Positions 5,382-53,600 of a stretch of DNA of 64,000 nucleotides are shown here, piece by piece. This DNA comes from a virus (taxonomy: Duplodnaviria > Caudoviricetes). The position numbers were made by a program, and so were the translations under genes. Below the pieces are notes generated by a model, which ran no database searches, was not told the origin of the DNA, and saw only the letters and a list, made by a program, of their open reading frames with translations. Where the stretch lies: IMG/VR virus record IMGVR_UViG_3300021400_001623, positions 1-64,000 of that record; one strand, 5' to 3'. Positions within the stretch are counted from its first letter, which is position 1. Every line of letters begins with the position of its first letter.

Positions 5382-5403
5382 GAGCGCTTTATTTAAATCT
5401 AAT

Positions 5404-5451: not shown

Positions 5452-5484
5452 AATATTAATTTGTTCTTTGAATGGTTAATTTAC

Positions 5485-5675
5485 TTAACGTTTCGAAGAA
5501 CGGGATGTTGAGCAAATTAACACTTTGAAGAACAGGATGTTGAGTAAATTAACACTTTGAAGAACGGAGGGTTCATGAAAGCGTAAGTTGGGTTGAGTAA
5601 ATTAACGTTTTGAAGAACGGTGATTTTAAGCCAGGTTCATGAGAGCGTTAAATAAATTAACACTTTGAAGAACGG
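5485..5675 (+). repeat. Five 19-bp iteron-like direct repeats (candidate replication origin)
   Basis: TTAAC(A/G)(C/T)TT(T/C)GAAGAAC(G/A)G at 5485, 5517, 5549, 5602, 5657; spacings 32, 32, 53, 55 bp. Confidence 0.9.
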
Positions 5676-5690
5676 GAAAGGAGTGATGCA

Positions 5691-9411: not shown

Positions 9412-10480
9412 ACGGAGATCTGTCGCCTAGTACAGCAATGTACTAGTGAAAAGGTGGTGAACCGGTAAATGCCGGGTGTGCAGCATATGCTGTGCTAACA
9501 GGGAAAGCTAAGGCATTTCATATACTTGGAGGTATATGAAGTTTATAAATAAAAAGACATATTGTGATAATTTTGGAATATATCAGATTAAAAATATATC
9601 GAATAATTGCGTTTATGTTGGACAGACAAAAGCTAGTTTTCAAAAACGATTTTGGCAACATAATAATTTATTATCACAAAATAGGCATTTTAATAAACAA
9701 CTACAATATACATGGAATATATATGGGTCAGAATCATTTGTATTTGAAGTATTATATGTATGTAATGACGACGACGATATTGATGCTCTTGAAGAACAAT
9801 ATATACTGGACGCAAGAAATCGTACAACGTGCTTTAATATATTAAATGGCTCGTCTTTTAAGAACTCAAACGTTGGTGAGTTGAACCGCAGACGTTTGCT
9901 TGGTACTCAACTATCTGAGCAAACAAAACAAAAAATGTCTAAATCAAGAACTGGAAAGCGGCAGTATAAAAAACGGGATCGACTAACAGACGAACAAGCT
10001 ATTCATGTTAAACAGCTACTCATCGATGGATATTCATCAAAAGAAATAATGAATTTAACTGGCATAGAATATAAAGTTATAAACAATATTATTTCATGCG
10101 ATGCATATAAAACACTTTATGTAGATGGTTGGGATAAGTATCGTGAGAAGCATGATACTGATGTAAAAAAGAAAAAGGCTATAACACAAAAGTTACACAG
10201 TGATATAGTTGAACTGTTTGTAAAATATCAGATGCCAAAATCTAAAATTGCAGATTATCTATCTGTGTCATGGCATACTGTTGATGATCATTTGAAAAAT
10301 GAAATGCTATGCTAATCCTGTGCTAAGCCTCATATGAGGAAAGTGCAACGACTATCCTAATTTTAGGAGTAGATTAGTGGTGAAAATCCACTTTTCGAAG
10401 TGCCACCCACCCTATTTAATCTAGGGTGATGATATAGTCTAAACCCCTTATAAATATCGGGAAACCGAGGGTATTATTTG
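9412..10480 (+). mobile_element. Group I intron (IA2-like) with homing endonuclease, in RNAP gene
   Basis: P1 exon CGAU/GUCG(9422-9425) with U9411.G9422; P4 ACAGG/CCTGT; P7 GACTA(10350)/TAGTC(10435); P3 GGTGGTG/TGCCACC; P7.1 and P7.2 present; terminal G10480; splicing gives in-frame FTI|DFAKTLYKP. Confidence 0.92.
9536..10315 (+). CDS. Intron-encoded GIY-YIG homing endonuclease
   Basis: GIYQI...VYVGQ motif, KRFWQH, conserved EEQY; NUMOD3-like LSEQTKQKMSKSRTGK; SD GGAGG. Confidence 0.92.
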   Translation: MKFINKKTYCDNFGIYQIKNISNNCVYVGQTKASFQKRFWQHNNLLSQNRHFNKQLQYTWNIYGSESFVFEVLYVCNDDDDIDALEEQYILDARNRTTCFNILNGSSFKNSNVGELNRRRLLGTQLSEQTKQKMSKSRTGKRQYKKRDRLTDEQAIHVKQLLIDGYSSKEIMNLTGIEYKVINNIISCDAYKTLYVDGWDKYREKHDTDVKKKKAITQKLHSDIVELFVKYQMPKSKIADYLSVSWHTVDDHLKNEMLC

Positions 10481-32902: not shown

Positions 32903-35669
32903 ATGCCAGATATTAAAACAAGAGTGTTGGCCGATACTTCACAAGCCGCTAAAACTATAGAAGATTTTTTATCAAAATATAATAATCGTGTTATTAATTT
33001 AAGAGTTAACGCGATTACAAAGGGTTCACTTGCTGGTGTTACAAAAGGTCTGAAACCTATTAAGAAGATGGTGGCTGAGGCTGGTAAATTTAAAGTTCAG
33101 CCAATGATGGATAGTAGATCTGTAAAATCAGTACGAAAAGGGTTAAAAGAACTTCAGGGTGCACAAGTTAGATTATTTAAGGATCGTGAAACGCAGCGTA
33201 AATATCACGAGACTATGGATCGTGCAGCCGCCAAGGATGCTAATAGAATTGCAGATCAGCAAACCAAGCATTATAGAAACAATCTTAAAGAAAGGGTTAA
33301 GGATCATAAACAGGCTGCAGCTCAACAGGCTAAAATAACTGAGGCGTCTGAAAAAAAACAAGCTAAAATATCTGAACAAATTCAAGAGCAATCAGATAAG
33401 AAGAAAAGCAAAAAACGTAAGGCAGCAGCCAAGGCTGAAGCTAAGCAAGCTGAGCCAAAAGCAAAAAGTAAAAATGCCGCAGAACAAAAAAGAAGTTCTG
33501 CCAAACAAGTAAATGAAAAGGCTGCAGCAGCAAGACGCTTAAAGGAAGTTGAATCTGCTTGGGCTGAGCGAAGAAAAATTTTAGAGGCAGAGTATGCCGC
33601 TCGTACAAAAGCTGAAAGTAAAGCGGCTGAACAAAGCATTAAAACAAATCGCAAGAAAAATGAACAAATAGCTCGTGATAATAAAAAGGCGGCTACAGCC
33701 GCAGCTGCTGCTCCACCGGGAGGCGGTGGCCCTTCAGAACCACCTAATAAAACTGTTGCTAAAGCGCGTCAGGAAGTTAATAAAACTCTTAAAGATCTGG
33801 ATAATGAAATAGCTCGATATGACAAAATGCTGGAAGGCCCGCATCGTGATTTTATGAATCCTGATGCGAAACGAGCACTAAAAGAAGAACGTCAAGCGTT
33901 GCGTAATCGTAGGCGCAATGCTAGAAATTTACGCAAGGAACTTCTTGGTAGACCAGATGACACTGTTATTGATAGTAAACTTGCGAGACGGGTTGATCGT
34001 CATACTGGACGTACTAAGACTGGTATTAGTGACGCTAGCACAGTTCGTGCTGAAAACGCTGATTATGTAAAAAGTGCTATTGGCACGCAAAAGGCGCGAG
34101 CTGCTGAAGCAAAAGCAGCACAGAAAGCAGCAGAAGATGCAGCGGCAGCTGAGAGGAAAACCGAACGTAAGGCTTTTGAGGATCGTTTGGCTAGACACGC
34201 TGCTGAAAAAAAAGAACGTGAAAAAGCGATTCAAGAGCGTTCAAAGCAAGCACAGAAAGAAGGTTGGGCTGAATATCATGCTGCTGAGCAGCGCATGAAA
34301 CGTCAGCAGAAACTCACACAAAATGCGGCTGATGAAGAACGTGCTCAACAAAAGCAGCGTAATCGTGATGCGGAAAATATTCGCAAGCAAGCTGAAAAGG
34401 ATGCTCGCTCTATTTATAATCGTGGGAATGAGTTAGATAGACGGACTGGAAAAGGCGGCGAATGGGCTGGGTTATTATCTGATAAAGATATTGCTAAGCA
34501 GAAAAAGCTTGTTTCTGATACCCTTGAATTAGATAAAAAGCTTGCCACTTTAAGAAACGCAACAGCTGGTCGAAATGTTACAGCGGCCGAATATCAAGAA
34601 ATGGAGCGTCTTGGTGCCGCTATTAGTAATAATAATGCTTTGATGAAGCATTATGATAAAACTAATCAAAGTCATATAAAGACTGCTAAGGCCGAGCTTA
34701 AAGTACAAGAACAGAATCAAAAGGCATGGGATAAACAGGCTGAAACATATCGCAAACAGGCTGTGACCAATGCGCGCAATATTCAATCGATGTCGCGCAC
34801 GTTTAGTAATAATACTGGGCGTGGTGGTGCATGGGAGAATATGCTTACGGAGCAGCAAAGACAATCTTGGCAAAAGCAAATGGCTAGTGCGACTCAAGCC
34901 AGACAGGAGCTTGCTCGGTTAAACACACAGACTCAAGGCCGGAATGTTACGCAGTCACAAGCCGATGAATATAAGAAGTGGGCAACACAACTTAATACTG
35001 CAAAAACAAATCTTCAAGGTTTAACTAAAGTATATACCGATCATGTCAAGGCTTTGAACGGCCCGCAAAACGCGGCGATTTTCTACGATAAGTTGGCTGC
35101 TAAGATGTCCGATTATAATGCAAAATTCGGGCATAATTTACAACGCAACCAGCGCTTAATGGATCAATTCAATACCTTGCAGATGCGCGCGAATAATGGC
35201 GACTTCGCAAATATTGGAGAGGCTAATCGTCAATGGGCTACATTCCGTACCGAAGCGCGTAAGGCTGGCGTTGAAATCGATTCTTTTGGTTCTAAACTTC
35301 AAAGGACATTTGGTTCCAGAGTGAGATCCGCTACGGCGGGTATGGGCGTTTATATGATTCAAAGCGCATTGCGCGGAATTGTAGAGAATGCCAAAGAAGT
35401 CGATACGGCGATGACCGAGTTAAAGAAGGTTACTACTGGAACTGATAAGACTTACGAAGATTTCTTAACTAATGCTGGAACGCGCGCACAAACTCTTGGT
35501 GCGACGCTTCAGGAAACGGTAAGTGCAACAGCAGATTTTGGTCGTCTCGGATATAACATTGAGGATGCGACAAAGTTAGCGGATAATGCGCTTATCTATC
35601 AAAATGTCGGTGACGATATTGAAAGCATCGATGAGGCGTCAAAGGCGCTTATTTCAACGATGCAAGGGT
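32903..35669 (+). CDS. Tape measure protein, exon 1
   Basis: ORF track 32903..35716; TP901-like motif VDTAMTELKKVT...ATADFGRLGY; ends MQG-T at intron. Confidence 0.88.
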
Positions 35670-36733
35670 TAATTAAAGCTCTTGTAAAACAGGGTGAATT
35701 GCTGGAACATCCTTAGAGCTCTAATACTACAACGTGGTTGGAAACGACGAGCGTGACAGTGTGAAAAATTAGAGATTGGACAATCAGCAGCCAAGGGCCG
35801 TATAGGTCAAGGTTCAACGACTAAAGCAGATGCTTGTAGGGTGGAAGTCCACTCGAAGTGCCCTGCTCTTTTTATTTTAAAGAGAAGATATAGTCTAATC
35901 TCGCATGAAAATGTGAGCAGTATATATATCATGGGAAGGAGTATATGTGGATAATTATTGTGTTTATATGCATATCTTCCCCAACGGTAAAAAATACATT
36001 GGTATTGCTAAAGAGGATAGATTGTTAAAAAGATGGGGGTCTAATGGTGACGGATATCTCAATAATAGACAATATGCTATTGAAAATGCAATACGTAAGT
36101 ATGGTTGGGAGAATGTGCGTCATGAAATTTTATTATCAGGTCTTTCAAAATCTGAAAGTAAAATAGCTGAAATTCAATTAATTAAAAAATATAACACTTT
36201 TGGTGTTAATGGTTACAACATGACACCTGGTGGTGATGATCGCACGTTTATGTATGGAGCTAATAATCCATCGTCTCGGCCAGTCATATATCAGAATAAA
36301 GAATATGCAACTATGAATGATTTTTGCAAAACATTCAATCTCAAGATGCCTACGGTATCAATGTGGTTAAATGGGAAAGAGCCAATGCCAAAGATATATT
36401 ACGAAAACGGACTACATTTTAAAGGCGAAGGAATGAATCATTTATATGTGCAGAACGGACATCCATCTGGGAAAAATTCACCAACTGCAAAAGCTATATA
36501 TTTTAATGGCGTGAGATATGACACATTAAAAGAATTTTGTAAGCATTATGGTGTTACAAAAGATACAGTACGCGGATGGACTATTGGTAGGACGGCTATG
36601 CCACGTTATTTTTATGATGGTAACTTGCATTATGAGGGTGGCGATCTATCTTTAGCTAAGCGTAGTAAAGTTAAAAATAAATTTGATGATATATATACGA
36701 GGCTGAATTAACGACTCAGCCTGAATATACATG
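35670..36733 (+). mobile_element. Group I intron (IA2-like) 1 of tape measure gene, with homing endonuclease
   Basis: 7-bp P1 CAAGGGU/GCUCUUG(35678-84) with U.G; AATTGCTGGAA(35697), AATCAGCAGC(35782), P7 GACTA(35819)/TAGTC(35891); P7.1 and P7.2; terminal G36733; splice restores QG-F-GIEAE. Confidence 0.93.
35947..36711 (+). CDS. Intron-encoded GIY-YIG homing endonuclease
   Basis: YCVY...KYIGI, AIRKYGWEN, GYNMTPGG; two C-terminal repeated DNA-binding modules (GANNPSSRPV.. / GKNSPTAKAI..). Confidence 0.9.
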   Translation: MDNYCVYMHIFPNGKKYIGIAKEDRLLKRWGSNGDGYLNNRQYAIENAIRKYGWENVRHEILLSGLSKSESKIAEIQLIKKYNTFGVNGYNMTPGGDDRTFMYGANNPSSRPVIYQNKEYATMNDFCKTFNLKMPTVSMWLNGKEPMPKIYYENGLHFKGEGMNHLYVQNGHPSGKNSPTAKAIYFNGVRYDTLKEFCKHYGVTKDTVRGWTIGRTAMPRYFYDGNLHYEGGDLSLAKRSKVKNKFDDIYTRLN

Positions 36734-37195
36734 TTGGTATAGAAGCTGAGAATAGTACTTCTATTGTAGATAAATTTAATGAGGTTGCGAATAACTATGC
36801 TTCCTCAGCCGGAGATATCGGCCAAATCACTCAGCGAAGTGCTGCGGCTATGTCGGCGGCAGGCAACTCCTTAGACCAGACAATAGCTTTGGGAGTTGCT
36901 GCGAACGAAGTTCAGCAGGATGCTGATACAGTGGGTACGGCTTTAAAAACCATGAGCATGCGGCTAAGAGGTTCTAAGACTGACATGGAGTCCATGGGCC
37001 TCGACACGGAGGGTATGGCAACATCCGTATCTAAACTTCGTGATGAAATATTAAATTTATCCGGCGTTGATATAATGCTGGACGAAAATACATTTAAATC
37101 CTCTTACGATATCCTTATGGGTATCGGAGAGGTGTGGGATGGTCTAACAGATATTAATAGAGCGAATATCACCGAATTGTTGTTTGGCAAGAGAC
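36734..37195 (+). CDS. Tape measure protein, exon 2
   Basis: Open frame GIEAENSTSIVDKFNEVANNY...LFGKR; includes ORF-track 36850..37335. Confidence 0.88.
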
Positions 37196-37544
37196 GAACA
37201 ATTGTCTCGATATACGGTGACGTATATTGTAAAACACATCTAATTGCAGGAACCTCCTTTTGGGACAATCTGCAGCGAAGCAAGCTACGGCTTGAACGTT
37301 CAACGACTAGGGAAATGTCATCCCGTACAGCATAAGCTAATGATGCTGGAAATGGTGTGCCCAGCTTAACGCTGGTGAAGAAATAGTCTGATCTGCGGCG
37401 AAAGTCGTAGGAGTTAATGATTTATATATACTGATACAGATTCTTGCGCGCCTCTTAACAATGCGTACCATGTGAGGGTTGCTATAAGATATTTTATTAA
37501 ATCATTGACCGGCGTGGATTTGCGAACCACGTTGAACATAAATG
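37196..37544 (+). ncRNA. Group I intron 2 of tape measure gene (ORF-less, 349 nt)
   Basis: AATTGCAGGAA(37242), AATCTGCAGC(37267), P7 GACTA(37305)/TAGTC(37384), P3 CACATC/GGTGTG; P1 GAGAC/GTCTC; terminal G37544; splice restores GKR-Q-ANIG. Confidence 0.88.
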
Positions 37545-37861
37545 AAGCCAATATCGGTACAGCCATCCTACAAAACTATGAGCGTGCTCAAGAAATTCTT
37601 GAGACCTCGCAAAATTCTGAAGGTAGTGCCCTCCGCGAAAACGAGGTCTATCTGAACTCTATTCAGGGTCACATTGATCAGTTGATCGCTAAGTGGCAGA
37701 CATTCTCTGTTGCCCTTGCCGACTCTTCCGGCTTCAAGGCGATCATTGACGGCATTGGCGGCGTAGCCAATGTTCTTACTGGATTGATCAACGCTTTTGG
37801 CCCTGGGACCATGTTAGCAACGCCGCTTATGGCGATGCTATCCAAAACTTCAAACTCTGGT
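37545..37861 (+). CDS. Tape measure protein, exon 3
   Basis: ANIGTAILQNYERAQEIL...SKTSNSG; part of ORF-track 37472..37915. Confidence 0.85.
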
Positions 37862-38288
37862 AAAGTTTTAAATATGCCCTCTTACGGTGTAAACCGTAGG
37901 ATGTGGGCGGCTTAATATCGGCCGCCTAAGAGAACTCTCAAATTGCTGGAAAAAGCTAAAGCTCGCGAGCCAAAGCGGAGTTGGAAACGACAAACGTAAT
38001 GGCGTGGAAACACGAAAAAATCGCGAGATGGTATATGCTGAGAAAAAAGCGTATTCTATTTCCTCCAATAGTACTTATATTTTGATACTATTGGAGGGAA
38101 TAAAGTATCGTGCTAAGTACCATTCAACAATGCTTAATCAGCAGCCAAGTCCCCTACCCCATCGGGTTCGCGGAAAGGTTCAACGACTGTAAGGGAGTTA
38201 CCAGCTGGTCACTGGTTAATAGACAGTCTGACCTATAGCGAAAGCTATAGAGGGTAGTTAAATGCTACCCCGCCATAATTGAGTATAT

Positions 38289-38329
38289 AAAAAAGGAAGG
38301 CGTTGCACGGGAGGTTCCGATCAACGCCT
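38289..38329 (-). terminator. Terminator for the nested antisense gene
   Basis: Stem AGGCGTTG/CAACGCCT followed on minus strand by TCCTTTTTT. Confidence 0.7.
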
Positions 38330-38395
38330 AATATATTGTTCATGAAAACAATTCATGATGTGGATATTATACAGCATAAAGATTACAAAAGCAAA

Positions 38396-38941
38396 TTACT
38401 TGCCGGGCTCCCATTGGTGACCGCAGTTTTGGCAGACGTTGAGGACTTTATTCGCCCCTACTGCTCCAGCCAAAGCACCTTCGGGACCAGCAGCAATTAC
38501 GCCAGCGACAGCTTTGCCTACACCAAAACCTTGTTTCACTGTGGATATGGATTGAGAGCCACATTTGGGGCAAGAGACTATACCTTGTTGCTTATTCATA
38601 TATGATTGAACTGCAGTTGAACCAGGGTTTGGTTCCATGCCGCATGCGCGACGAGCAATGCGTTTTTCATCTTCATATTTCGCAGGAATAAGCTTGGTAT
38701 TGTTTGGATTTTCGACATATTGTTCCCAAACAGCTTTATACATGTCATAAGTTAGAGCTCTAATGGTATCTGGTCGTCTTCCATGAATTTTATATGAATC
38801 TAATTCTTCATATGTGATTGTTGTTGGCAATAATTTAGGCCCTATAATTGGTGTACTTTTACAAATACAATGTTTTTGTTGCATGTAGTCACTGCGATCT
38901 ACAACGCGCCCACAGTATGGGCAATAATACAAATATCCCAT
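38396..38941 (-). CDS. Double Zn-ribbon protein with glycine-zipper segment (intron-nested accessory gene)
   Basis: ORF track 38396..38956; GGAGG (38950-54) favours ATG 38941; CPYCG..CIC, CPKCG..CQNCG, GFGVGKAVAGVIAAGPEGALAGAVG. Confidence 0.85.
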   Translation of the reverse strand: MGYLYYCPYCGRVVDRSDYMQQKHCICKSTPIIGPKLLPTTITYEELDSYKIHGRRPDTIRALTYDMYKAVWEQYVENPNNTKLIPAKYEDEKRIARRACGMEPNPGSTAVQSYMNKQQGIVSCPKCGSQSISTVKQGFGVGKAVAGVIAAGPEGALAGAVGANKVLNVCQNCGHQWEPGK

Positions 38942-38962
38942 TTTATATACCTCCATATATAT

Positions 38963-38971
38963 ATTATATCA
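38963..38971 (-). promoter_or_regulatory. Extended -10 sigma-A promoter for nested gene
   Basis: Minus strand TGATATAAT just upstream of the GGAGG SD. Confidence 0.6.
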
Positions 38972-39009
38972 TATGGTATTTGAGTTATGGTTATTAAAGT
39001 AACAGTGTG

Positions 39010-42000
39010 TTATTTCAAACTGTAGAACAGATTAATGCAAAAACCGGAGATTCAAGGCAAGTATCTCAAAACTTTATTTCTGCTAGAAAAACAAAGGCAG
39101 CAACAAATGCATATTATTCAGACAAGAATAATCAATATGCTTTGCAAGATATGTCTCGTGCTAGACGAGATATGGAGCATGCGGAACGTCTAAGGGCTAG
39201 AGGTAATGCGGCTGGTGCAGCTGAAATTGAAGCTAAAGCCATTAAGGATTTAGATACTGCTTATCAAAAATTAGATGATACTGGTAAAAAATATGGTAAT
39301 CAGATAAAGGATCGTAATACAGATTTATCAAAGCATCAAAAAATTATAGCAGACTGCAGTGAAGCAACTGATAGAATGGCGCAATCTCAGGGCAAATTAA
39401 GGAGTGGATTTGCAGCATCTACTATCTCAATGGCTAAAAATATTGGCGCAACAATGGCTATTGGGACTGCTATTGACCTAACTATGAAGGGTTTTGATAC
39501 GCTTGATAAACATTTCCTTCTTACTGCCAATGCACAGAAAACTGCAATGAAAGATGTTGTAAGTGAGTATAAGGCCAGTACTGATACTTACACAGAAAAT
39601 ATAAACACAATTAATTCATTATCTGATGAATTTACAACTCTTTCTAAAGGCGTTGATGCGCATGGTAAAAATATTAGCCTTACAGCCGAACAATATGCTC
39701 GGTACAATGAGATTGTCAGCCAACTCGTTGCTACTTCGCCACAATTAGTTAAGGAGTATACTGCGGAGGGCAATGCTGTCGTAGATCGCAACAAGGCTAT
39801 TCAAGAGGCTATTGATCTGCAAGAGTCTTATCGTCGCAGCGCTGTTGCAAAATATACTTCTGATGATAGCATGCGAGCAATTCGTCTTGGATCTGCTGCA
39901 GAACGTCGTGAGATTCAGGCTGACATGCAATCCGCGGCAACTGAGCTCGATAAGCTTATGGGCGAAGGGACTGGTCAACGACGCACCACTTCTGCTTTTG
40001 GCTTAACTAAAGCTGGCGCTTCTACAGAAATTAAAGCAGTTAAGGAAATTAACGATGTTTTAGGTGAAAATGTTGATTTAGAAAATGCTTCTGCGGCTAC
40101 GTTATTGCGTATCGCTGAGCGTCGCGATGAGATAATCGGGAAAGTGGAAAAATCAACACAATATACCGATAAAGAAAAGCAATCTATTAAAGATTCCTTG
40201 TCGACCATTTCAACTTTAGCTCCGGATTTAGAGGCAACATATCAAAGCACTATAGACGCATTACAGACATATGTGTCTAGTGCAGATGAAACAGGCGTTT
40301 CTATCGCATCCTCTTTGCCAGAAAGTATGCAGGAAAGTTATGCTGCTGGTTTAAAGAAAATAGCGATGTCTGGTCTTGGAGATGCAGAAATGAAAACTGC
40401 TGCCAAGGATTTGGTGACGGATTTACAAAAAATCTATTCATCAAATGAAGGCGGCTTTAGAGATGCTGAACAAAACGTTGAGAATGCAAAAGAAAAATTC
40501 CTTGGTAGCGCAAGAGATAAAAATGCGGTTAAGGAATATAATGATAGTATTAAAGAATCTATAGGTACAATTGATCAGTTAGCGGAAAGCTATCGAGCTG
40601 CTGGCAATGATTTTCTTGCTGATGCATTAGATGCGCGTTCATTAGAACTTGCTGATTTTGGGCAAGAAAACATCCTCACCCTTGCAGACGCCTTCAACCC
40701 CCTCATCGACAAAATAACAGAAGCGCGTACCGTCAAAGAAAAATTTGACGCAGCGATGGCTGGCGGTGACTATGATACCACCGTTAATAGCTATAAAGAA
40801 ATGTACGACTCCATGATGGATGGTTACAACAATGCTGGTAACGGTACACAAGGTTTCTGGAATTTTGCTGAGCTGACTCTTGGACAAACAGCGCTTAAAG
40901 ATTTTGGCTATGACATAGATGCTGTTAATGCGCGACTCAAAGAGCTTGCTCCTGTCATGGAGAAAACTGAATCTGGAACAAATGCCTTCTTCGATCTTCT
41001 TGCGGCTAATCGCGATAAACTTAATGAGATCGAAGGCGTAACGATTGCGGAAGATGGATCGTGGGATATTCCAGCTGAAAAGTATGGTGAAGTTGCACGA
41101 CAGCTTGGTATTGCCGAAGACCTTTTAGTTGGTTGTGTTGATAACGCTCGCCACTGGGCGGACGTTAAGCTTTGGGATAGTCCTCAGAAAGCTGTTAAAG
41201 CCATCAAAGATATGGATACCACCTTCGAAAGTGCCGAAGGCAAAGCTTATGCATTTTACGATACCGTGGCGCAGCAGGCGCAACAAGCTGGTTTAAGTGG
41301 ACAAGAGTTTACCGAATATATGGACGAAATCGGTAAAAAGGTTGAACTTATTGATCTTAGCGCTCTTGATTTTGATCCAAATACCACAGAGGGCACTAAA
41401 AAGATCAACGCATTAGCTAATCAACTCACAAATATGAGTGATTTGGTCGGCACCAATGGCAAGCTCGATTTAACAGGCACCATAGCTATGTTTAAGCAGA
41501 TGGGTGCAACTGCCGATCAAACAACGCACGCCCTTGAAAAATTCCGTGAGAACGGTAATTTAGATATTGGCGAAGGTGTTGATATCGGTGATACGGTTAC
41601 CCAGGCATATGGAGAGTTAGAGGCTAACGATCCATTCGCTAAAATGACAAGTTCAGTTGATGGCTTACATAATGCTATTAACCAGTTGATTTCGGCCATG
41701 GGGATGGTGCCTGAAGACTGGATGAATTTAGATGGTATTAACCAGCAAATTAAAGGTCTAGAAGCTGCTGGCGACAAAATCAAACAATCAGATATTGATG
41801 CTGCCCAAGCAGAAATTGATGAGAAAAGAGCTAACTTGGAAGCTGCAAGGTCATCAACGACAGACACTGATGAACTTACTAAGATTAATAATACAATTGC
41901 AGCCCTAAATCAACAGCAAATTGCTTTAGATCAATTACGTGCACCATTAGAAGGATACACGAATTTACTGCAACATGCTGCGGAGACCGGAGATCAAATA

Positions 42001-45000
42001 GGTTCTGACGGTCAGTTAGATCAAACACTTCGAGATATTGGTGAAGCAGCACAAAAGAGCGGCCAAGATGTTGATCAATATATTGGTTCGATTGCGAAAA
42101 ATCGGCAAGAAGCTGACAAACTTCGTCAGGCATATCATCAACTTGAATCTCAAACAGCTGTAACTGATGCCACTTCTTCTGTTGCTAATGGAGCCAAACA
42201 AGCAGTTGATTCTGCGAAAACTGCTGTACAAGGTTTAATGTCTGGCTTTGGACGTACTGAAGCCGACGTAGATGTCAATGTTGATGACTCTGAAGTTGAT
42301 GACGCCGAGGAAAAAGTTGATGATCTTGATGGCAAAGATGTCGATGTTAATGTTGAGGCTAGTGCAAGAGGACTTGATAGCACCTTGAAGCAGATTGATG
42401 GGCTTAGTGATGAAGATCGTAAGACTGTTGTGGATGCTTATGTTAAGGTACATCAAGAAGGTGAAGACCCTCAAGTTTTACAAGATGCTATTAATGCGTT
42501 GCCGGACAATAAACAGACTATTGTCGGTGTTACGGTTAATGATGCTTCCGCTAGTTTAGAGGCAGTGCAAAGTGGATTGGATAATGTTGAAGCAACTACT
42601 CCGTCTCCGACAATTGCTGCAACAGATAATGCGACAAGCGTTATTAATAGCGTACTAGGTGCTTTGGCTGCTGCTAACGGACGAACAGCAACTACCACAA
42701 TTACTACTCGTCATGTCACTAGTTATGAAACTACAGGGACTCCTCCTAGTAAATACGCTGGAACTCCGAATCGTCGCGTCCCCTCTTTATACTCTGGTTC
42801 TGATAATCGTCGCCGTGCTGGTTCAGCAGCTAAGGGCGGTAAACTTGGCCCTCACGGTAAAGGTGGCCTTACCCTCACTGGAGAACTCGGCCCAGAATTA
42901 GTCTGGCTGCCGGATGAAGATACTTCATTCCTTACTGGTGTTCGTGGACCAGAAATGCGGGTACTTCCTGGCAATGCGGTTGTCTGGCCTTATGAAGAGA
43001 CCAAACGCATCTTTGGCGGAACGGTATCTGCCGGGTATTTAAATACGCGGAATGCTTGGTCTAAGAAGCAGCTTAATAATTATTTAGGCGGTTCTTCTGC
43101 TCGTGGCGCAAATTATCAATTTGGATCGGCTAAAAAGGGCAGCAAGAAGAAAAAATCTTGGAGCGACTATTCGGATAGAATAGATTTTAACTATGATATC
43201 GAGAAAATTAGCGAAGAAACGTATTATAAGCAGTTAGTTAAAAAATATAAAAAAGTAAAAAAGAAATTAACTGGATCAGAGAGACGTAACGCCAGAAAAG
43301 CTATTCACGATGCTTATGCTCAGATGCTTGATGCAAAAGTTGAGAATTTGGACTTTGCACAAGATATGGATAACATCGATGCCGCACAATATTATACAAA
43401 ATTGGCGGCATTAGCTTCTAAATATAAAAGAAAAAGTAAAAGAGACGGTAAATATACCAAAGAATATCGTGATTATCAGCTTAAACTTAAAGAAGCTGCC
43501 GATGCAATCTATGAGCGTGAAAAGTCTCAAATTGACTTTATGCTCAATCTCGGGGTTAATAAATCTGGTACGAAAACCTATAACGCCGTCGATGCATATA
43601 AAGATCTGCAAAATTATTTAAGAAAAGCAATTTCCGGTAAAGTAACTTCCAATACAAGTACAAAAACTTTAACTAGCGCAAGCTATGCAAAGAAATTCTT
43701 ATATACCGGGACATCTAACCGTCGTCAGCCAATTCGCTCGATGGCACGCGGTAGTGGTAGAATTGGTCCTGCTGGTCGTGGCGGATTAACATTAACTGGT
43801 GAATTAGGTCCTGAATTAGTATGGCTTCCGGATGATAATTTGTCGTTCGTAGTTGGGCTTTATGGGCCAGAAATGGTGGATTTACCAAGTAATGCAGTTG
43901 TGTGGCCTAACGATGAAACACAAGCTATTTTTGGTGACACTGTTAATTCTAGTTATCTTGAGCCAACAGATGCACTTACTTATGAAGAGTTGGAATACTT
44001 AGAATCATTATTATCTGGATCAGTTGCCAATGGCGCTAATCTTTTTGGTTCTTTGTCTACTGGTAAACGTAAAAAGACAACAACTAAAACAACTAAAACA
44101 ACTAAACGACCAGCGAAGTCAACTAAAAAGCCAAAGAAAAAGAAGAAGAAAACTAAGAAGAAAAAAACTAAGAAGAAAAATAAAGCTAAAACTGGAATCA
44201 TTAGCTCGATTAAAACATCGTCAAAACTTATATCTGGTGTTAATAAGGGAAAATCATCTAGTTCAAAGAGTAATACAGACAATACTTGGAATGCTATGTC
44301 CGAGGAAGAGCGTCAGCAATTACTCGAAGATCTTAAAGAGGCGCGACAAGACGCATATGATTATCAAAATGATACTTTTGAGCGTATTCTTAACAATTCA
44401 TTCTCAGATGATTGGAACGCATTGAATAAATATTTAGTCGATGCACAGAAGAATTTAAAGACACTAAACGAGCTACAGGATTCAGATAAAATCATTGAAG
44501 CACGTCAACAAATTGTTGATACTTTCTTTGATAATTTAAATGAAAAGTTTGATGATGTTAAAGAAAAGATTTCTGACAATGATCTGTTTAATTCTTGGGG
44601 CGATGGCGAATCTGCGCTTACTTTATTAATGCAATATAAGGCGCAATTAGAAACTATTTACGCCGCAAATAAAGATGCACTAGGAAAAGATACTGATGCA
44701 GCAAAACAATATTTGAAACTCATCAAGGAAGTGAATCGTGAATTAGTTAACGCTAAAGCGGAGGCTAAAGATAAGTACGATGATATTTTCCAATTAGTTG
44801 AACAGTTAGTTCGTCAGGAAAAGAAAGATCTTATTGATGCCTTAGAAAAGCAGAAGGATAAGTATGATGACATCATTGCTAAGAAAAAAGAGAGTTTACA
44901 GTTAACTGAAAATGAGCTTGATTATCAAGATCAGTTATCTGATTATGCAAAGCAAGAGGCTAAACTTCGTACGCAAATAGCATCTCTTTCGCGCGATACG

Positions 45001-46746
45001 AGCCGCGAGGCCAAGGCGAAGCGCGCCGAGCTTCAAGAACAGCTTGATCAGTTATTGGTCGAGAAGAACCGTACTGTGCGGCAGGAAACTATCTCTCGTA
45101 CGAATGATGCGCTTGACAAACAGCAAGAATCTTATGGTGATTTTATTGATAAATTAACGGAATCAATAAATGCTGTTTTAGATAATCAGGAAGCTGTAAA
45201 TGCACTTGTATATGATGCATTGGATAATCGCGATACGAATAATTTATTACAAAGATTATATGATTATAACGCTGAATATGGTGACGGTTTAATCCAAACG
45301 GTTGAAGAGTGGCAGATGGATCTGAATGATATCGTTGAGAACGAAATTTATAAGGAACTGAAATATCAAACAGAAGCATTGCGTGCAAGCCTAATTAATG
45401 AAGTTGGCTATGGCGATGATGAACACAAGGGCAAGTTTACCGACGACGTTACTTCCTGGAATAATGAGACTATTAGTAGGTTCTTATATTCGTTCGATCA
45501 GCTGTCTGATAAGTATTTCGATGAAGCGAAGTTGTTAGACACTATTATTGAGAAGTACGAAGAATTAATTAAAAAGTTTGACGCGCTATGGTTTGGTGAT
45601 TCTTCTGGCCAAGTTGATGCGACATCTAAGATTCGTATGGCAAATGCTTATAAAGCTCAGGTTGAAAGTGCTGAAGCAACTGTGCAAACTGCAGCTGGAC
45701 AGGCTGATGATGCATTAATTGCTGCTAATACTGCTAAAGCGCAGGCTGAGGCAGCAAAGTCGGAAGCCGACGCAAAGAAGGCGGAGGCAGATGTCGCAAA
45801 TGCAAATTTAGATGCAGCAAAACAAAAAGTAGCAAATGCACAAAAACAACTTCAAAGCGATAAAGCGGCATATAGTAATGCGGAAAAGAACGTTGTTAAT
45901 GCTAATAAAGCTTTAGATAGTGCACTTAATGCAAGGGATAAGGCCGCAAGTAAAGTGGCAAAGATGCAGAACGCTTTGGAGACGGCTAAGGCAAAAAGTT
46001 ATAAGAGTAAAGAAGCGCGAAGTAAAGCTATTGCTAAGGCAAAAGACAATCTTGCCGCTGCAAAATCAGCTTATACAACAGCTAATAAAAATGTAACAAC
46101 TGCAAATGATAATGTAAAAAAGCAGCATCAAAATCTCGTAGAAATTGATAAGAAAATCGGTAACGACATTAAATCAATTGAAAGTGCACAGGCTGCAGCC
46201 GCAATTGCTGAAAAAGAAGCTGCAGCTGCTACGCAAGTATGGGAATCTTTCTTAGCGGCGCAACGTGAGGCCGAAGTGAACGCAAAGTTAGCCATGTACC
46301 AATATGATGCTATGGCTCAAAATCTTGCTAATGCGACACAGGAGCTTGAGATAGCTAGGGAGCGCTTTGAATCAGCTAATACTGCGTTATTGAACGCAAT
46401 GGATAATGACGTTATTGTTCCATCATACAATATTTTAAGTGATGCGGCGCAATCACTTGATGGTGTATTATCGACTTTTGCAAATACTAATCTAGTTTCT
46501 GATGAAATTATGGCTGGGATTGCATCGTTGGGTGCAAGTGTAAATACTACGAATCAAGCTAATAATTCACCACAAACTTATTCGTTTAATATGCCATTCA
46601 CAGTTACTGTAAATGGTAATATGTCTCAAGCAGATCAGGCTAAATTACAGTCTGACTTATCCAATGCCGTTTATAATGGTTTGTATAATGCATTACAGAT
46701 GAATGGATTAGCAACTTCTACATCTGCGAATGCCTTAAAGAATTAA
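39010..46746 (+). CDS. Tape measure protein, exon 4
   Basis: ORF track 39007..46746 lacks an SD and is open only from 38998; four exons total 11283 nt = 3760 aa, in frame. Confidence 0.85.
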   Translation, partial: LFQTVEQINAKTGDSRQVSQNFISARKTKAATNAYYSDKNNQYALQDMSRARRDMEHAERLRARGNAAGAAEIEAKAIKDLDTAYQKLDDTGKKYGNQIKDRNTDLSKHQKIIADCSEATDRMAQSQGKLRSGFAASTISMAKNIGATMAIGTAIDLTMKGFDTLDKHFLLTANAQKTAMKDVVSEYKASTDTYTENINTINSLSDEFTTLSKGVDAHGKNISLTAEQYARYNEIVSQLVATSPQLVKEYTAEGNAVVDRNKAIQEAIDLQESYRRSAVAKYTSDDSMRAIRLGSAAERREIQADMQSAATELDKLMGEGTGQRRTTSAFGLTKAGASTEIKAVKEINDVLGENVDLENASAATLLRIAERRDEIIGKVEKSTQYTDKEKQSIKDSLSTISTLAPDLEATYQSTIDALQTYVSSADETGVSIASSLPESMQESYAAGLKKIAMSGLGDAEMKTAAKDLVTDLQKIYSSNEGGFRDAEQNVENAKEKFLGSARDKNAVKEYNDSIKESIGTIDQLAESYRAAGNDFLADALDARSLELADFGQENILTLADAFNPLIDKITEARTVKEKFDAAMAGGDYDTTVNSYKEMYDSMMDGYNNAGNGTQGFWNFAELTLGQTALKDFGYDIDAVNARLKELAPVMEKTESGTNAFFDLLAANRDKLNEIEGVTIAEDGSWDIPAEKYGEVARQLGIAEDLLVGCVDNARHWADVKLWDSPQKAVKAIKDMDTTFESAEGKAYAFYDTVAQQAQQAGLSGQEFTEYMDEIGKKVELIDLSALDFDPNTTEGTKKINALANQLTNMSDLVGTNGKLDLTGTIAMFKQMGATADQTTHALEKFRENGNLDIGEGVDIGDTVTQAYGELEANDPFAKMTSSVDGLHNAINQLISAMGMVPEDWMNLDGINQQIKGLEAAGDKIKQSDIDAAQAEIDEKRANLEAARSSTTDTDELTKINNTIAALNQQQIALDQLRAPLEGYTNLLQHAAETGDQIGSDGQLDQTLRDIGEAAQKSGQDVDQYIGSIAKNRQEADKLRQAYHQLESQTAVTDATSSVANGAKQAVDSAKTAVQGLMSGFGRTEADVDVNVDDSEVDDAEEKVDDLDGKDVDVNVEASARGLDSTLKQIDGLSDEDRKTVVDAYVKVHQEGEDPQVLQDAINALPDNKQTIVGVTVNDASASLEAVQSGLDNVEATTPSPTIAATDNATSVINSVLGALAAANGRTATTTITTRHVTSYETTGTPPSKYAGTPNRRVPSLYSGSDNRRRAGSAAKGGKLGPHGKGGLTLTGELGPELVWLPDEDTSFLTGVRGPEMRVLPGNAVVWPYEETKRIFGGTVSAGYLNTRNAWSKKQLNNYLGGSSARGANYQFGSAKKGSKKKKSWSDYSDRIDFNYDIEKISEETYYKQLVKKYKKVKKKLTGSERRNARKAIHDAYAQMLDAKVENLDFAQDMDNIDAAQYYTKLAALASKYKRKSKRDGKYTKEYRDYQLKLKEAADAIYEREKSQIDFMLNLGVNKSGTKTYNAVDAYKDLQNYLRKAISGKVTSNTSTKTLTSASYAKKFLYTGTSNRRQPIRSMARGSGRIGPAGRGGLTLTGELGPELVWLPDDNLSFVVGLYGPEMVDLPSNAVVWPNDETQAIFGDTVNSSYLEPTDALTYEELEYLESLLSGSVANGANLFGSLSTGKRKKTTTKTTKTTKRPAKSTKKPKKKKKKTKKKKTKKKNKAKTGIISSIKTSSKLISGVNKGKSSSSKSNTDNTWNAMSEEERQQLLEDLKEARQDAYDYQNDTFERILNNSFSDDWNALNKYLVDAQKNLKTLNELQDSDKIIEARQQIVDTFFDNLNEKFDDVKEKISDNDLFNSWGDGESALTLLMQYKAQLETIYAANKDALGKDTDAAKQYLKLIKEVNRELVNAKAEAKDKYDDIFQLVEQLVRQEKKDLIDALEKQKDKYDDIIAKKKESLQLTENELDYQDQLSDYAKQEAKLRTQIASLSRDTSREAKAKRAELQEQLDQLLVEKNRTVRQETISRTNDALDKQQESYGDFIDKLTESINAVLDNQEAVNALVYDALDNRDTNNLLQRLYDYNAEYGDGLIQTVEEWQMDLNDIVENEIYKELKYQTEALRASLINEVGYGDDEHKGKFTDDVTSWNNETISRFLYSFDQLSDKYFDEAKLLDTIIEKYEELIKKFDALWFGDSSGQVDATSKIRMANAYKAQVESAEATVQTAAGQADDALIAANTAKAQAEAAKSEADAKKAEADVANANLDAAKQKVANAQKQLQSDKAAYSNAEKNVVNANKALDSALNARDKAASKVAKMQNALETAKAKSYKSKEARSKAIAKAKDNLAAAKSAYTTANKNVTTANDNVKKQHQNLVEIDKKIGNDIKSIESAQAAAAIAEKEAAAATQVWESFLAAQREAEVNAKLAMYQYDAMAQNLANATQELEIARERFESANTALLNAMDNDVIVPSYNILSDAAQSLDGVLSTFANTNLVSDEIMAGIASLGASVNTTNQANNSPQTYSFNMPFTVTVNGNMSQADQAKLQSDLSNAVYNGLYNALQMNGLATSTSANALKN

Positions 46747-47681: not shown

Positions 47682-50600
47682 ATGTTAGTAGATTTCTCGT
47701 CAATATCGCGAGATTACTATGGCAATATTGAGCAGCCGGTCGTCACATTAAAGACGCCGCATGGCTCTGTCATTTCAGTTATTCCGGCCAATTCAATCTC
47801 CATGACATGTCGTTACAACGATGTTTCTGAGGTGCAATTTACTGTCCCCGCATATATTGAGGGTCAGAAAGTTCCGAGTTATGATGAGATATCCGGTTTG
47901 CGGCTTGTTGAGATTGGAGATTTTGGCGACTTCGTTCTCATCAATCCAGAAAAGACGAACGAGGGCGGGATTAAAGAAACGCTACAATGTACGGCATATT
48001 CTCTTGAATATGTTTTTAATTATAAAAAAGTCGACCTCGGAATTGAAGAGGACGTAAATACATATGAGTTCTATAATCAGACTGATAATACAGATACTAT
48101 TATGGGTATGATTATAGAAGCGGCACCAGATTGGTCAATTGGTTATGTTGATCAGGAGTTAATTGGCAGGTATCGATATTTTGATAATACAGATGATAAC
48201 TGGTATTCATTTATGATGAATACTTTGCAAGAAGCATATAATTGTGTGTTCTTGTTTGATACTAAGAATAAGTCAATTAACGTTATTAGTACGTCACATG
48301 AGAATACTAATTTACCGATTTTCTTATCGTATAATAATTTATTAAAAACAGTAAATGTTACTGAATTATCAGAGGAAATTGTTACATCACTGGCTGGATA
48401 TGGATCTGGTGATGAAGTAAGTATCCGCGATGTTAATCCAAATGGAACTGATAAAATATATAACTTGGATTTCTTCTTAGCACGTGGTGATCTAACTGGT
48501 GAGTTGGCAGATAAATGGAGACGTTATAAGGAATCATGTAAGACCAATTATGAGGTCTATTCTGTTTTAAATGCCGCATATCGCGAAAAATATAGTCAGT
48601 TATTAACAGCGGAAGCTGAATTGATTGCATTGCAAACAGACTATGAAGCAGTTGATGCTCCATTAAAAATCAATCAAGAATTAGTTTTATCTGAGACCGA
48701 TGAAATTAATAAAGAGATTCTTGAGAATCAAATTGCGCAGCAAAAGGTCGAACGCAATACGCTTGCGGCAAAAATTACTAATGCGCAAAATGTTATTAAT
48801 GATGGTAATGGGCATGGACTTGAGATTGATGTAGAGCAGATTAACAGTCAATTAGATGATATTGTGGATCAATGTAGCTTGTCATCATTTTTTACTCATG
48901 AAGAGTTAACTATTCTATCTCAATATTTTATTGAAGATGCAATTACAGAAAGCTCTTTTGTATTATCAGAATACGGTTCTGCTACATCTGAGGATTTATA
49001 TCAAAGCTTAGACTCTACTGCAGTACCAATATTAACCGTTACGGATTCATATGTATATGCAAGCGACGCTTATACGATCATTGAAGACCCGGAAGGGTTG
49101 GATCTAGATCCGGCAATGCAGGCTACAATTATTGAACAATTAAATAATGACCGTAATAAAAGTTCGCTTGAAATGCGCGGTGGTAAATTTCAATTTAGTT
49201 ATGCGACTATAGATAGTGCAGGATTTCAGGAGCATATTATTAGTGGCGATATTGTTAATGTAGATTTCCAATATAACGTAACTAATTTACCAACTTATGT
49301 CGATGAAGATTCGTCCGATATGACGAAGAAGGGTTATTTTATTATAACGGCTGATATAATTAATGGCTCGATTGATGATACGCCCTACCCTTCTATTCAC
49401 CTGGTTATGGATGGAATGCTTGGCGAGAATGATCCGGTGAGCACCGACACTTCTTTGCGCGTTGAAATGGATCACGTCGTTTATTCATGTACTGGATCTG
49501 TTACAGAATTACAAAAGCAAGATGTGTTAAAGGAGCTGTACGATTATACTGAGACTGAATTAAAAAAGCTCTCTGAGCCGTCTTACGAATTTAATATAGA
49601 TTCAGCGAACTTTTTATTTGCAGATAAGTTTGAGCCATTTAAGGACGCATTAAAACTTGGTGATACTATTAACCTTGTCATTGATAACGAAGAGGAAGAG
49701 GTTTTAGAACCGATCTTAATTGAAGTATCTTTTGACTTTGAAGACGAAACTAAACTAGAATTAACTTTCAGTGACAAATATAAAAAATCATCTCCACAAT
49801 TCAAATTGGCTGATTTAATCACTGAAGCCTCGCATTCAGCACGAAGTGTAAATCTAAATAAGGCTTCATATTCATCATACAAAGATAGCAATACTGGGTC
49901 ACAAGTGCGTAAGATGCGCGATTCCGCTCTAGATGTTTCAAAAAATAAAATTCAAAATGCTGTAAATCAGAATTTAGAGTGGAACCAAGCAGGCATGTTC
50001 CTACGCAAAACGAATGCTAATGGCACCGTCGACCCCAAACAGATTGGTTTTATTAATGACGCGATTGTATTTACCAGAGATAATTGGGACACAATCGAAA
50101 TGGCTATTGGATCGATTTATGATCCAAATCTTATTGGCGCATCCGGCGACAATGATGACGGTGTACGGTATGGTATAGCTGCACCTGCTATTTATGGTAC
50201 ACTGTTGGCTGGTGAAAATTTGGTTATTGAAAACACTATCCTTGATCCGCAAGGTGGTGAAATATTAAAACAATTTAAGGTTGATGCAACTGGTGCTTGG
50301 CTCAACAATTCGTCTCTAGTGCTTGCCAATGATAGCGAAAATGGCGGAAAAATGTTTCTTGATCCTAAGTATGGATTCGCTGCTGGTACTCAAGATTTAT
50401 ATACATTACAAGGTACTGAGATAAAACCCAGTTTTATCGATGAAGATGGCGAAATCATCATGGATGAAACTGAGACTATCACTTTACCCGATGGGACATA
50501 TTATTATGTTCCAAAAAATGCGCAGTTTTATTTCGACATAAATACAGGTAATGCATACTTTGCTGGTAATATTAATGCGCGGAATATTATGGCTGGCACG

Positions 50601-53600
50601 CTAAATGGTATGGCTATTACTGCGAACACTCTTGATGGTTCCGCTTTGATTGCAAATACTGTTAATGGTGATAAGATTACCACCAATACATTGAGTGGCG
50701 AAAAGTTGCAAGACTTAGCTATTACAAGTTCTAAAATTGCAAACAGTACTATCACAGGGTCAAAAATAGCTAATAGTACTATTACTGGCAGCAACATAGC
50801 TAATACAACTATTACCGCGTCTAATATCGTAGACGGCACCATTACTGGCACTAAGATCGCTGATGCGACTATTACTGGAGAAAATGTTTTAACCGGAACA
50901 ATTACTGGTGGACATTTGGCTCAAAACACCATTACAGATGCCAATATTGAGCGTGGTACAATTACTGGTGCAGCAATTGCTAGCGGCACCATAACTGGTA
51001 CCAATATTCAAGGCGGTTCAATTACCGGAACAGAGATCGACGATTCGACAATTACCAGTTCTCATATCGTTGATGGTACGATTACGGGTACTGATATTGA
51101 TAATGCGACAATCACTGGTGGCAATATTGCGCAGACTACTATTACAGATTCCAATATCGTTCGCGGCACTATTACTGGAGCTGCGGTTGCATCTGCAACA
51201 ATTACAGGTTCAAATATTGCTGGTAGTACGATAACTGGTACAAATATTGATTTCTCAACATTTTCTAATGGTGTGATCTCCGGTACAGCTATCGATACAT
51301 CTACATTTACGAACGGCAGTATTGATGCAAGCGCTATTGATGCTTCTTCATTTACCAATGGTAGCATCTCTGGATCTGCTATTGATACATCAACATTTAC
51401 GAATGGTCAAATCAGTGGTACAAAGATTGACACATCTACATTCACAAATGGCTCTATCTCTGGCTCAGTAATTGACTCTTCTACCCTTACCAACATTCCA
51501 TATGCAGGAATAGCGTGGGCGGATATTACGGCGGCAGATATCGATGTTGCGTGGATCGATACTGGCATGATTAAAGATGCTGCTATTACCGATGCGCAAA
51601 TCCTTGGTGTATCAGCTAATAAACTCACCGCCGGAACAATAGATGCAAACAAAATTACAGTAGCTAATTTGAATGCCAAAAACCTCATTGTTGAAACAAT
51701 TAATGGGCAGGCGCTTCTTGGCGGCTCATATAATGCCGTTGATAAGACATCCGCTGGCTATGCATCAAAAGTTCCTTCTGCGGAAAATTGGTATGAGATT
51801 ATTGATGGCGAATTTGTCAAATCATCTGATGCGTCCGTACAGGCCAATAAGACATATTATACGCTTGGCCAGACTAGCGTAACCACTACTGGATACGTAG
51901 ATGGTCTAGTCGATGATTTGAATGATCGTATCGATGGAGCTATTCAGACATTTACAACTGATGTTGTACCTACCTTAAATAATTATCCGGCGGAAGACTG
52001 GACTACAACTGACCTGCTTGATGAACATGTGGGCGACGTATGTTATGTTGTTAATGCAGAAAGTCAGGCCGACGGATATTGCTATAGATTTACAAAGAAA
52101 CAAAATAATACTTATGAGTGGACGTTAATTAAAGACTCTGATGTCACTAAGGCATTGCAGGATTTAATTACTGTGCAAGGCGACATATCCGGCTTGAAGT
52201 CATTTGAGACTTCTACTACCGCTTGGATCACAAATACGGATGATGAGTTGTCGAGCTTAAAGCAGCGTACATCTACTCTTGAAACGGATATGGGCACTAA
52301 GGTAGATTCAACGACCTTTAACACCCTATCACAGACAGTCGATGAAAATAGTGCATCTATCACCTCATTATCAACTACAGTGGCAAGTAAAGCTGACAGC
52401 TCTACAGTAACCACACTATCAAATACCGTGAATACTGTGAGCCAAAAAGCAGATGCGAATGAATCTGCTATCAGCCAGCTCACGCAAACTGTATCCGATA
52501 ATGAAACTGATATTGAACAAAAGTACTCAACACTATCACAAGATTTGAATGGATTCAAAACGACTGTTGGAACAACTTATGCTACTAAAACAGCGCTGGG
52601 CGATCTATCGGATGATGTTGATGCCATTGATACGCGTGTAACTAGCGCCGAGTCATCTATTACCCAGAACGCAAATAATATCGCGCTTAAGGTAAGTCAG
52701 GACGGTGTAATTGCATCCATTAATGCTTCGCCGGAATCTGTAACGATTAATGCTAATCGCGTTAATATTGCTGGCGCGGCTATTTTCAGCGAATATACAA
52801 AGACGGATGATCTCGATGATACTATTGCCGGACTTGGATATGCGCAAACATCTGATGCGGTAGCAGAAACGCAGAGAATCTATATCTCAAAGACTACGAC
52901 TGGTTCTTATACTGGTCCGACAACTTGGGTAACGGCAACTACTTATACCGCAAATACATGGACGACGAAACGCCCTGCATATGATTCGAGCTATCCTTAT
53001 CTTTACACTTGCCTCCAAAAGAAGACGGTGAATGGTACGGTGACATGTACTCCAGTATTGCTTGATGATACGACAACCGTTATCGATGGTGGGAAAATCA
53101 TTACTGGATCTATTACTGCAAATCAGCTGGCGGCAGATGCTGTTAAGTCAACTAATTATGATGCAGCTGACAGTGATGAGTCTCCGTACTCCGTTGCTGG
53201 CACATTACTTGATCTCAACAGCGGTAATATTTATTCGCCAAATTTTGGCGTAATTAATAATGGCGTTGTCGATCCCATTACTGGTGATGTAGTTTTATAC
53301 CCAGGTGCATATATTAATGGTAATATTGTTGCCACATCAGGTATGATCGGTGACGATGAAAATACTGCATGGGAAATCGGCTCATTTACAGATTACGATG
53401 CTAATACATATGGCTCGCTTATTTCACATGGTAAGGCTTTTCTTCAATCTGGTAAGTGGATGCTGAGCGAGGATTTGCTTGATACACGTTGGTATGCACT
53501 TGATAATGTTTCTGGTGGGCAAAAAATCACTTATCCATACGCCTCGTCTACATATTGGGACTTTGGCTTACATGCGCCGGATGTTACTAAGACTACGAAT

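Follow-up and report, generated by a model that had tools for sequence, protein, structure and literature searches.

The group I introns of the T4 genes td, nrdB and sunY belong to subgroup IA2 and carry I-TevI-type GIY-YIG endonucleases. In prophages of the Bacillus cereus group, IA1 and IA2 introns occupy three sites of the tail tape-measure gene, with no more than two in any one gene (Tourasse and Kolsto 2008, PMC2504315). In Staphylococcus phage Twort, a single gene, orf142, is interrupted by three group I introns and shows exon skipping (Landthaler and Shub 1999, as cited in PMC11878797), and polymerase genes of the Bastillevirinae have up to three introns. Here we analyse the tail tape-measure gene of an uncultured, SPbeta/Sundance-like phage, which lies in the first 64 kb of an IMG/VR virus record (IMGVR_UViG_3300021400_001623; 80,432 nucleotides (nt) in total, estimated to be 50% complete); this stretch of 64,000 nt as a whole is called the window. 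The gene is broken by three genuine group I introns, whose predicted excision would yield a single protein of 3760 amino acids (aa).

As with TMP-IVS1, TMP-IVS2 and TMP-IVS3 of the B. cereus group, IA-type introns occupy several sites within a conserved part of the tape-measure gene, a single gene can have more than one of them, endonuclease genes occur in only some of them and the guides are adapted to each site (PMC2504315). In contrast to those systems, there are three introns in the gene for a 3760-aa protein, compared with at most two for a protein of more than 1200 aa, and neither a C-G splice site nor antisense cargo nor a split guide is described in that paper. With Twort orf142 the locus shares the presence of three group I introns in one phage gene, with short exons between them, whereas the host gene differs, the Twort introns have been shown to splice while splicing is predicted here, and exon skipping would lead here to an early stop. 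Tape-measure introns were already known, and the locus is a further member of that kind; what sets it apart is the C-G pair of intron 2 and, in intron 3, the apparently split guide and a conserved cargo other than an endonuclease. The original prediction, in which phage group I introns were described as reported mostly in DNA-metabolism genes and some structural or lysis genes, understated this precedent, since tape-measure introns at three sites had been published in 2008.

Four long open stretches, which differ in frame, follow one another on the + strand between positions 32903 and 46746 (Table 1). When the four exons were joined, they gave 11283 nt that translate to 3760 aa with a terminal stop only, and the peptides across the three junctions read STMQG|FGIEAE, LLFGKR|QANIG and KTSNSG|LFQTVE. 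Without splicing, the exon frames run into intron stops at 35716, 37335 and 37915. The introns are in phases 1, 1 and 0 and interrupt the tape measure at residues 922, 1076 and 1182; their insertion sites span 780 nt of coding sequence and lie inside or just after the PF10145 core, the only well-conserved stretch of the protein. As read from the sequence, a stop would follow at once or soon after if any exon were skipped; with exon 2 left out, for instance, the junction would read T|AA. An intein reading was ruled out, since the insertions do not keep the frame and contain many stops. The exon 1 open reading frame (ORF) begins at ATG 32903, and its residues 782-921 match PHROG 4211, 'tail length tape measure protein' (E 2.6e-23). 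Exon 2 matches Pfam PF10145 PhageMin_Tail (E 1.1e-16, profile positions 69-201) and is 82% identical to its counterpart in the relative L009 and 52% to that in MT837120. Exon 4, whose frame is open over 39007-46746 and which has no ribosome-binding site or start signal of its own, again matches PHROG 4211 (E 9.4e-17). The protein is homologous to the Sundance tape measure YP_009194085. Downstream of it come Dit (phrog_33) and then a minor tail protein (phrog_6211), and both the PhageMin_Tail core and the place just upstream of Dit and the Tal-like gene identify the gene as a tape measure.

The Rfam group I intron covariance model RF00028 (gathering score 50 bits; full model, positions 1-253) matched all three gaps above the gathering score, and the conserved core from P3 to P9 is present in each (Table 1). 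All three introns end in G, at 36733, 37544 and 39009. In the alignments to the model, introns 1 and 2 have insertions of 33 nt and 41 nt, respectively, between P7 and P3', each with two hairpins (P7.1/P7.2), the mark of subgroup IA; intron 3 lacks them, and the difference is as the original prediction had read it. The P1 pair at the splice site is U.G in introns 1 and 3 and C-G in intron 2, and P10 comprises 5/6 bp in intron 3 and only 2 bp in each of introns 1 and 2. Pairwise, the three cores are 47-50% identical and have only the universal segments in common; in addition, site occupancy differs among close relatives. Both observations bear out the earlier proposal that the three introns were acquired independently.

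Uninterrupted relatives provided a second line of evidence. Tape-measure homologues were found by tblastn in Brevibacillus phage Sundance, in gut-phage contigs and at 54 IMG/VR loci; a megablast of 35000-39500 gave no matches among GenBank phages, and a tblastn search of IMG/VR with the 400 N-terminal aa of exon 4 gave no relatives by that route. Among the loci labelled in our set are MT837120 (L005), the Sundance tape measure (L006), Thomasclavelia phage TR-TP1 (L008, PQ571309), IMGVR_UViG_3300031555_005503 (L009) and Streptococcus phage Str-PAP-1 (L066). Excision of the three introns restores a frame that is collinear with intron-less alleles, empty sites being found in L015, L009, L005 and Sundance. 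The junction 1 site is empty in all four of these: L015 is identical to the window over 30 nt upstream of the junction and then continues without an insert, and MT837120 and Sundance read STLQGFGL and STIKGFGV without interruption. At junction 2 the same two homologues read GGKRNAN and GGKHQGN, and the L009 DNA, GGCAAGAGACAAGC, is contiguous and equals the predicted ligation of exon 2 to exon 3 at 14/14 nt. At junction 3 the L015 sequence ...TCTGGATTATTT... is contiguous and encodes KTSNSGLF, and the L015 and L063 proteins read ...SNSG LF/IF K T... across it. Every junction is therefore collinear in relatives (1 and 3 in L015; 1 and 2 in L009, L005 and Sundance), and the gene structure as first proposed proved to be correct to the base.

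Intron 3 belongs to a family, with homologues at the same site, after the Gly GGT codon, in L009, L010, L063 and L064; a pattern scan of IMG/VR for its 5' motif returned only the L009 contig. In the RF00028 alignment the intron has P2, P2.1 and a large P5 extension. The P1 pairing GGUA/UGCC with its U.G is invariant in the five lineages (the window included), P2 is common to all five with compensatory changes, and at the 3' end all five carry AAAGUAACAG followed by 2-3 nt and then G. Exon positions -7 to -4 are paired with a second part of the guide, AGAG (37939-37942); this pairing, with the four nt that immediately precede P3, was drawn by RNAalifold. Across the family (Table 1) 8 positions of this pairing are altered on both sides and none is broken, for which we roughly estimate a chance probability of ~1e-3; the covariation was counted by hand, and MAFFT shifted the distal guide of L010 by one base. 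P3 was taken from Rfam, where L009 shows two compensatory changes, because RNAalifold mis-drew this helix of the pseudoknotted core. P10 covaries as well. In the window AAAUAU faces UUAUUU of the 3' exon at 5/6 bp, and relatives reach 6/6; in four lineages the partner of the guide AAAUAU is (U/A)UAUUU, and in L010, where the guide is GAAUGU, it is ACAUUC, a sequence that was predicted before the 3' end of the L010 intron was located. The exon guide of intron 3 thus seems to be split in two halves by P2 and P2.1, with a proximal GCC before P2 and the covarying 4-nt segment after P2.1, beside P3. A quick full-text search of the literature returned no description of a split exon guide, which is weak evidence of novelty.

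We consider it very probable that the tape-measure gene, carried on one late transcript, was invaded three times by unrelated group I introns whose removal would give the 3760-aa tape measure. The late transcript would carry this gene, then Dit and the giant Tal-like gene. Each ribozyme would fold and set its own 5' splice site through P1, excision would take place after the terminal G by the two usual GTP-initiated transesterifications, and the 11283-nt reading frame so produced would be translated into the tape measure. Intron 3 would represent a small family that keeps to a single site of the tape-measure gene, with a long loop after P9 that holds an antisense zinc-ribbon gene and, in relatives, further cargo. 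The additional suggestion that serial splicing gates tail assembly found no support in our results and must be regarded as speculation.

Several points weigh against this explanation. Splicing, like homing, we infer from the sequence; the record is an uncultured-virus contig, of which half may be missing by the estimate given above; P10 is weak in introns 1 and 2; intron 2 does not have the near-universal U.G pair; and the Rfam alignment prefers for it a hairpin, UUGUUUG/CGAACAA, with a U.G ten nt upstream. The inferred nature of splicing, the incomplete contig and the non-canonical C-G pair, along with the absence of an endonuclease gene from intron 2, could also be taken to mean that the insertions are decayed relics unable to splice, in a defective element whose tape-measure gene no longer functions. 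We find this very improbable, as the three cores align to the whole of RF00028 above threshold, 11.3 kb of exon sequence is open and collinear with relatives, and the guides of the intron 3 family follow changes in the exon and therefore indicate selection for splicing.

The upstream hairpin that Rfam draws in intron 2, a 7-bp P1 with U.G, raises the question of whether this intron might splice after U37185, with the 3' site after G37531. The product would be in frame, reading ...ELLF-LNINE-ANIG... instead of ...ELLFGKRQANIG..., but it would lose GK(R/H), which is present in every homologue examined; all of these have G-K-(R/H)-(Q/N) and the closest read ELLFGKRQANIG exactly. In addition, the L009 DNA has the C|AA junction within its 14 matching nt, the minimum-energy structure from RNAfold forms GAGAC|GA/UUGUCUC, with C-G at the 5' splice site, and no P10 is available for the upstream site. 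We therefore regard splicing after U37185 as highly improbable. A scarcely credible alternative is that the gene is truly split and translated as four separate polypeptides without RNA splicing, for although public annotations of related phages list split tape-measure coding sequences (CDSs), the 5' ends of exons 2 to 4 offer no start codon accompanied by a ribosome-binding site, the breaks, in phases 1, 1 and 0, cut through conserved motifs, and the gaps are occupied by ribozyme cores.

Under the preferred reading, with three introns spliced at the junctions given, intron 2 has a C-G pair at its 5' splice site. The last base of exon 2 is C37195 and not U, a point absent from the original prediction. 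The intron splits a conserved Gln codon behind its first base (C|AA). With AA at the start of the 3' exon, exon 2 must end in C to preserve this residue, as a U would create TAA, and the C-G pair is thereby forced in place of U.G. Hur and Waring (Nucleic Acids Res 23:4466) reportedly described in 1995 a C.G at the 5' splice site of Aspergillus nidulans mitochondrial group I introns. As there, C-G replaces U.G, and to judge from the title of that work the replacement was attributed to selection on the encoded protein; unlike there, where the introns are organellar, the host is a phage and a U would create a stop codon. Such a pair in this position is a rare exception with published precedent.

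Intron 2 looks like a deletion derivative that has lost its endonuclease gene, because in L064 the same 3' end and 3' exon are preceded by an HNH-like ORF. L064 holds only the 3' end of intron 2, and the 5' splice site is known from the window copy alone; exact-pattern scans for the 3' junction in IMG/VR and the JGI metagenomes gave no second copy. Other introns lie 7 to about 20 nt from this site in L034, L010, L007 and L008. RNAfold also paired the end of exon 2 (37170-37190; UUGGC, ACCGA) with the start of exon 3 (37545-37560; GCCAA, UCGGU). Such pairing could draw the splice sites of intron 2 together, or it may be due to chance.

Intron 1 forms P1 between exon CAAGGGU and intron GCUCUUG, with U.G at the splice site. 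Its ORF matches phrog_314 'homing endonuclease' (4e-22) and phrog_5123 'GIY-YIG' (6.8e-9); the match to the Pfam GIY-YIG family is weak (0.0034, 18.1 bits, below the cut-off of 22.6), as is a helix-turn-helix match. The YIG and GYN motifs can be read directly in the protein, which appears to consist of an N-terminal catalytic domain and a C-terminal DNA-binding region, and a Shine-Dalgarno sequence, GGAAGGAG, lies ~8 nt upstream of the GTG start. The GIY-YIG endonuclease is apparently intact, and intron 1 is probably mobile through it. Intron 1 resembles the T4 td, nrdB and sunY introns in having P7.1/P7.2 and a GIY-YIG gene looped out from a peripheral element with its own ribosome-binding site, and differs from them in its host gene and in low sequence similarity. 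The site of intron 1 was interrupted in none of about 58 relatives. The core itself is similar to introns from many phages, one of which interrupts the tape-measure gene of Str-PAP-1; that tape measure is not homologous to the one in the window, so the insertion sites are not comparable.

The long loop after P9 of intron 3 holds a gene in antisense orientation, whose protein has N- and C-terminal zinc ribbons with a Gly-rich hydrophobic insert between them and matches phrog_2546 (function unknown; 1.1e-21). We collected 10 full-length homologues, in which the C-terminal 60 aa are almost invariant. Homologues are found at the same place within the introns of L009, L010, L063 and L064, and wherever context exists the gene is antisense and sits between the tape-measure intron core and the downstream exon; in L065 it lies, again antisense, beside the downstream tape-measure ORF on a contig that stops short of the ribozyme. 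On the minus strand a GC-rich hairpin with a T-run, read from the sequence, follows the gene. The region of this hairpin at the 3' end of the gene (window 38270-38380) is almost identical to positions 3250-3150 of L064 (reverse complement), and the flanking genes have diverged. No match to LAGLIDADG, GIY-YIG, HNH, His-Cys, PD-(D/E)XK or EDxHD endonucleases was found for the antisense protein, and its zinc-ribbon matches were below Pfam cut-offs; an AlphaFold model (mean pLDDT 64.5) gave no PDB match in Foldseek at E <= 0.001.

The L009 homologue of intron 3 carries a holin and an endolysin between the core and the antisense gene (Table 1). In the L009 contig (110 kb, 64% complete), searched with these two queries only, the sole Holin_SPP1 match and the sole full-length copy of the CHAP endolysin are the intron-borne ones; in the window's genome, a holin and a CHAP lysin lie outside the tape-measure gene, at about 69.3-70.1 kb. 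We tentatively propose, though we would not give it even odds, that the intron 3 family goes beyond a selfish ribozyme with an endonuclease gene and is a gene-carrying platform at one tape-measure site, characterized by the split guide, by an antisense zinc-ribbon/Gly-zipper gene that would be expressed separately and is present in all five lineages, and by a post-P9 loop that takes up further genes. If this were true, essential or accessory phage genes would be housed and moved within a self-splicing intron, and the zinc-ribbon protein might be a new kind of intron-associated factor.

Table 1. Coordinates of exons, introns, covariance-model matches, cargo genes and distal guide pairings at the tape-measure locus and in relatives
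Feature	Sequence	Positions	Strand	Details
Exon 1, tape measure	Window	32903..35669	+	2767 nt; aa 1-922 and first base of codon 923
Intron 1	Window	35670..36733	+	Group I, IA-like with P7.1/P7.2; 1064 nt; core to ~35917
RF00028 match, intron 1	Window	35583-35917	+	79.4 bits, E 1.5e-18, model 1-253
Homing endonuclease gene, intron 1	Window	35947..36711	+	GIY-YIG type, 254 aa; GTG start; looped out after P9
Exon 2, tape measure	Window	36734..37195	+	462 nt; Pfam PF10145
Intron 2	Window	37196..37544	+	Group I, IA-like with P7.1/P7.2; 349 nt; no ORF
RF00028 match, intron 2	Window	37176-37410	+	63.0 bits, model 1-253
Exon 3, tape measure	Window	37545..37861	+	317 nt; collinear with L015, L063, L009, Sundance
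Intron 3	Window	37862..39009	+	Group I without P7.1/P7.2; 1148 nt; core 37862-38250
RF00028 match, intron 3	Window	37858-38250	+	71.1 bits, model 1-253
Antisense gene, intron 3	Window	38396..38941	-	181 aa from second ATG, GGAGG upstream; phrog_2546
Exon 4, tape measure	Window	39010..46746	+	7737 nt; 2578 codons and stop
Intron 3 homologue	L009	6778-9614		2837 nt; antisense zinc-ribbon gene, holin and endolysin
SPP1-type holin (PF04688)	L009	7140-7589	sense	Between core and antisense gene
CHAP/PG-binding endolysin	L009	7602-8513	sense	Between core and antisense gene
Intron 3 homologue	L010	8611-11173		2563 nt
GNAT-like ORF	L010	9515-10096		193 aa; in intron 3 homologue
Antisense zinc-ribbon ORF	L010		antisense	87 aa; in intron 3 homologue
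Antisense family member	L010	10612-11106		164 aa; in intron 3 homologue
Exon -7 to -4 / intron partner	Window and L064			CUCU / AGAG
Exon -7 to -4 / intron partner	L063			CACU / AGUG
Exon -7 to -4 / intron partner	L009			CGUC / GAUG
Exon -7 to -4 / intron partner	L010			UGUA / UACA, one-nt spacer

Interruption of the tape-measure core is common in this phage group. The core was interrupted in 35 of 58 related loci, at about eight sites in all, with clusters at residues 882/883, 940/942, about 973-1002, 1049/1050, 1071-1075 and about 1182. Introns confirmed by Rfam were limited to L009, L010, L015 (two in tandem) and L063 (two). Most of the interruptions in relatives, even the clear intron 3 homologue of L064, escaped RF00028, whether at the gathering score or at E <= 0.001, and simple core-motif regular expressions were too strict for these introns; judged by eye, most of the ~35 interrupted relatives are probably group I cases. 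The combination of introns varies. L009 has the intron 3 type only, and L063 has the intron 3 type and one elsewhere; L015, the closest relative, has none of the window's three introns and two different ones instead. With the possible exception of L007, none of the 58 related loci has three interruptions in the core region. The tandem group I introns of L015 (4717-4931 and 5008-5249; 62.5 and 102 bits) lie ~80 nt apart at residues ~973-987, and an I-TevI-like ORF (5328-5978) follows them.

The main finding matters chiefly for annotation, since without intron-aware calling the 3760-aa protein becomes four fragments and stray ORFs, and tail lengths deduced from such fragmented calls would be wrong. 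By the usual rule of 0.15 nm per residue, a tape measure of 3760 aa would correspond to a tail of about 560 nm. Annotation as broken genes, which had been anticipated, does occur in deposited genomes: the tape measures of TR-TP1 and Str-PAP-1 are entered as two or more CDSs, which are separated by genes for HNH or homing endonucleases, and the breaks are probably unannotated introns. For ribozyme and phage biologists, the points of interest are the C-G variant, the split guide supported by covariation and the non-endonuclease cargo. Intron 2 represents a natural C-G splice-site variant under codon constraint, and the intron 3 family an instance of the stable housing of non-endonuclease genes, in one relative a lysis cassette. 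A core with about eight interrupted sites would be a useful system in which to study competition of introns and endonucleases over one gene.

Two further features of the window deserve mention. The ORF that follows Dit (47682-58121, +) encodes 3479 aa, of which only the N-terminus matches phrog_6211 and the rest is largely unassigned; we describe it as a giant Tal-like gene. Scoring 41.3 bits, below the Rfam threshold, a fourth group I candidate lies at 10197-10461 (+).

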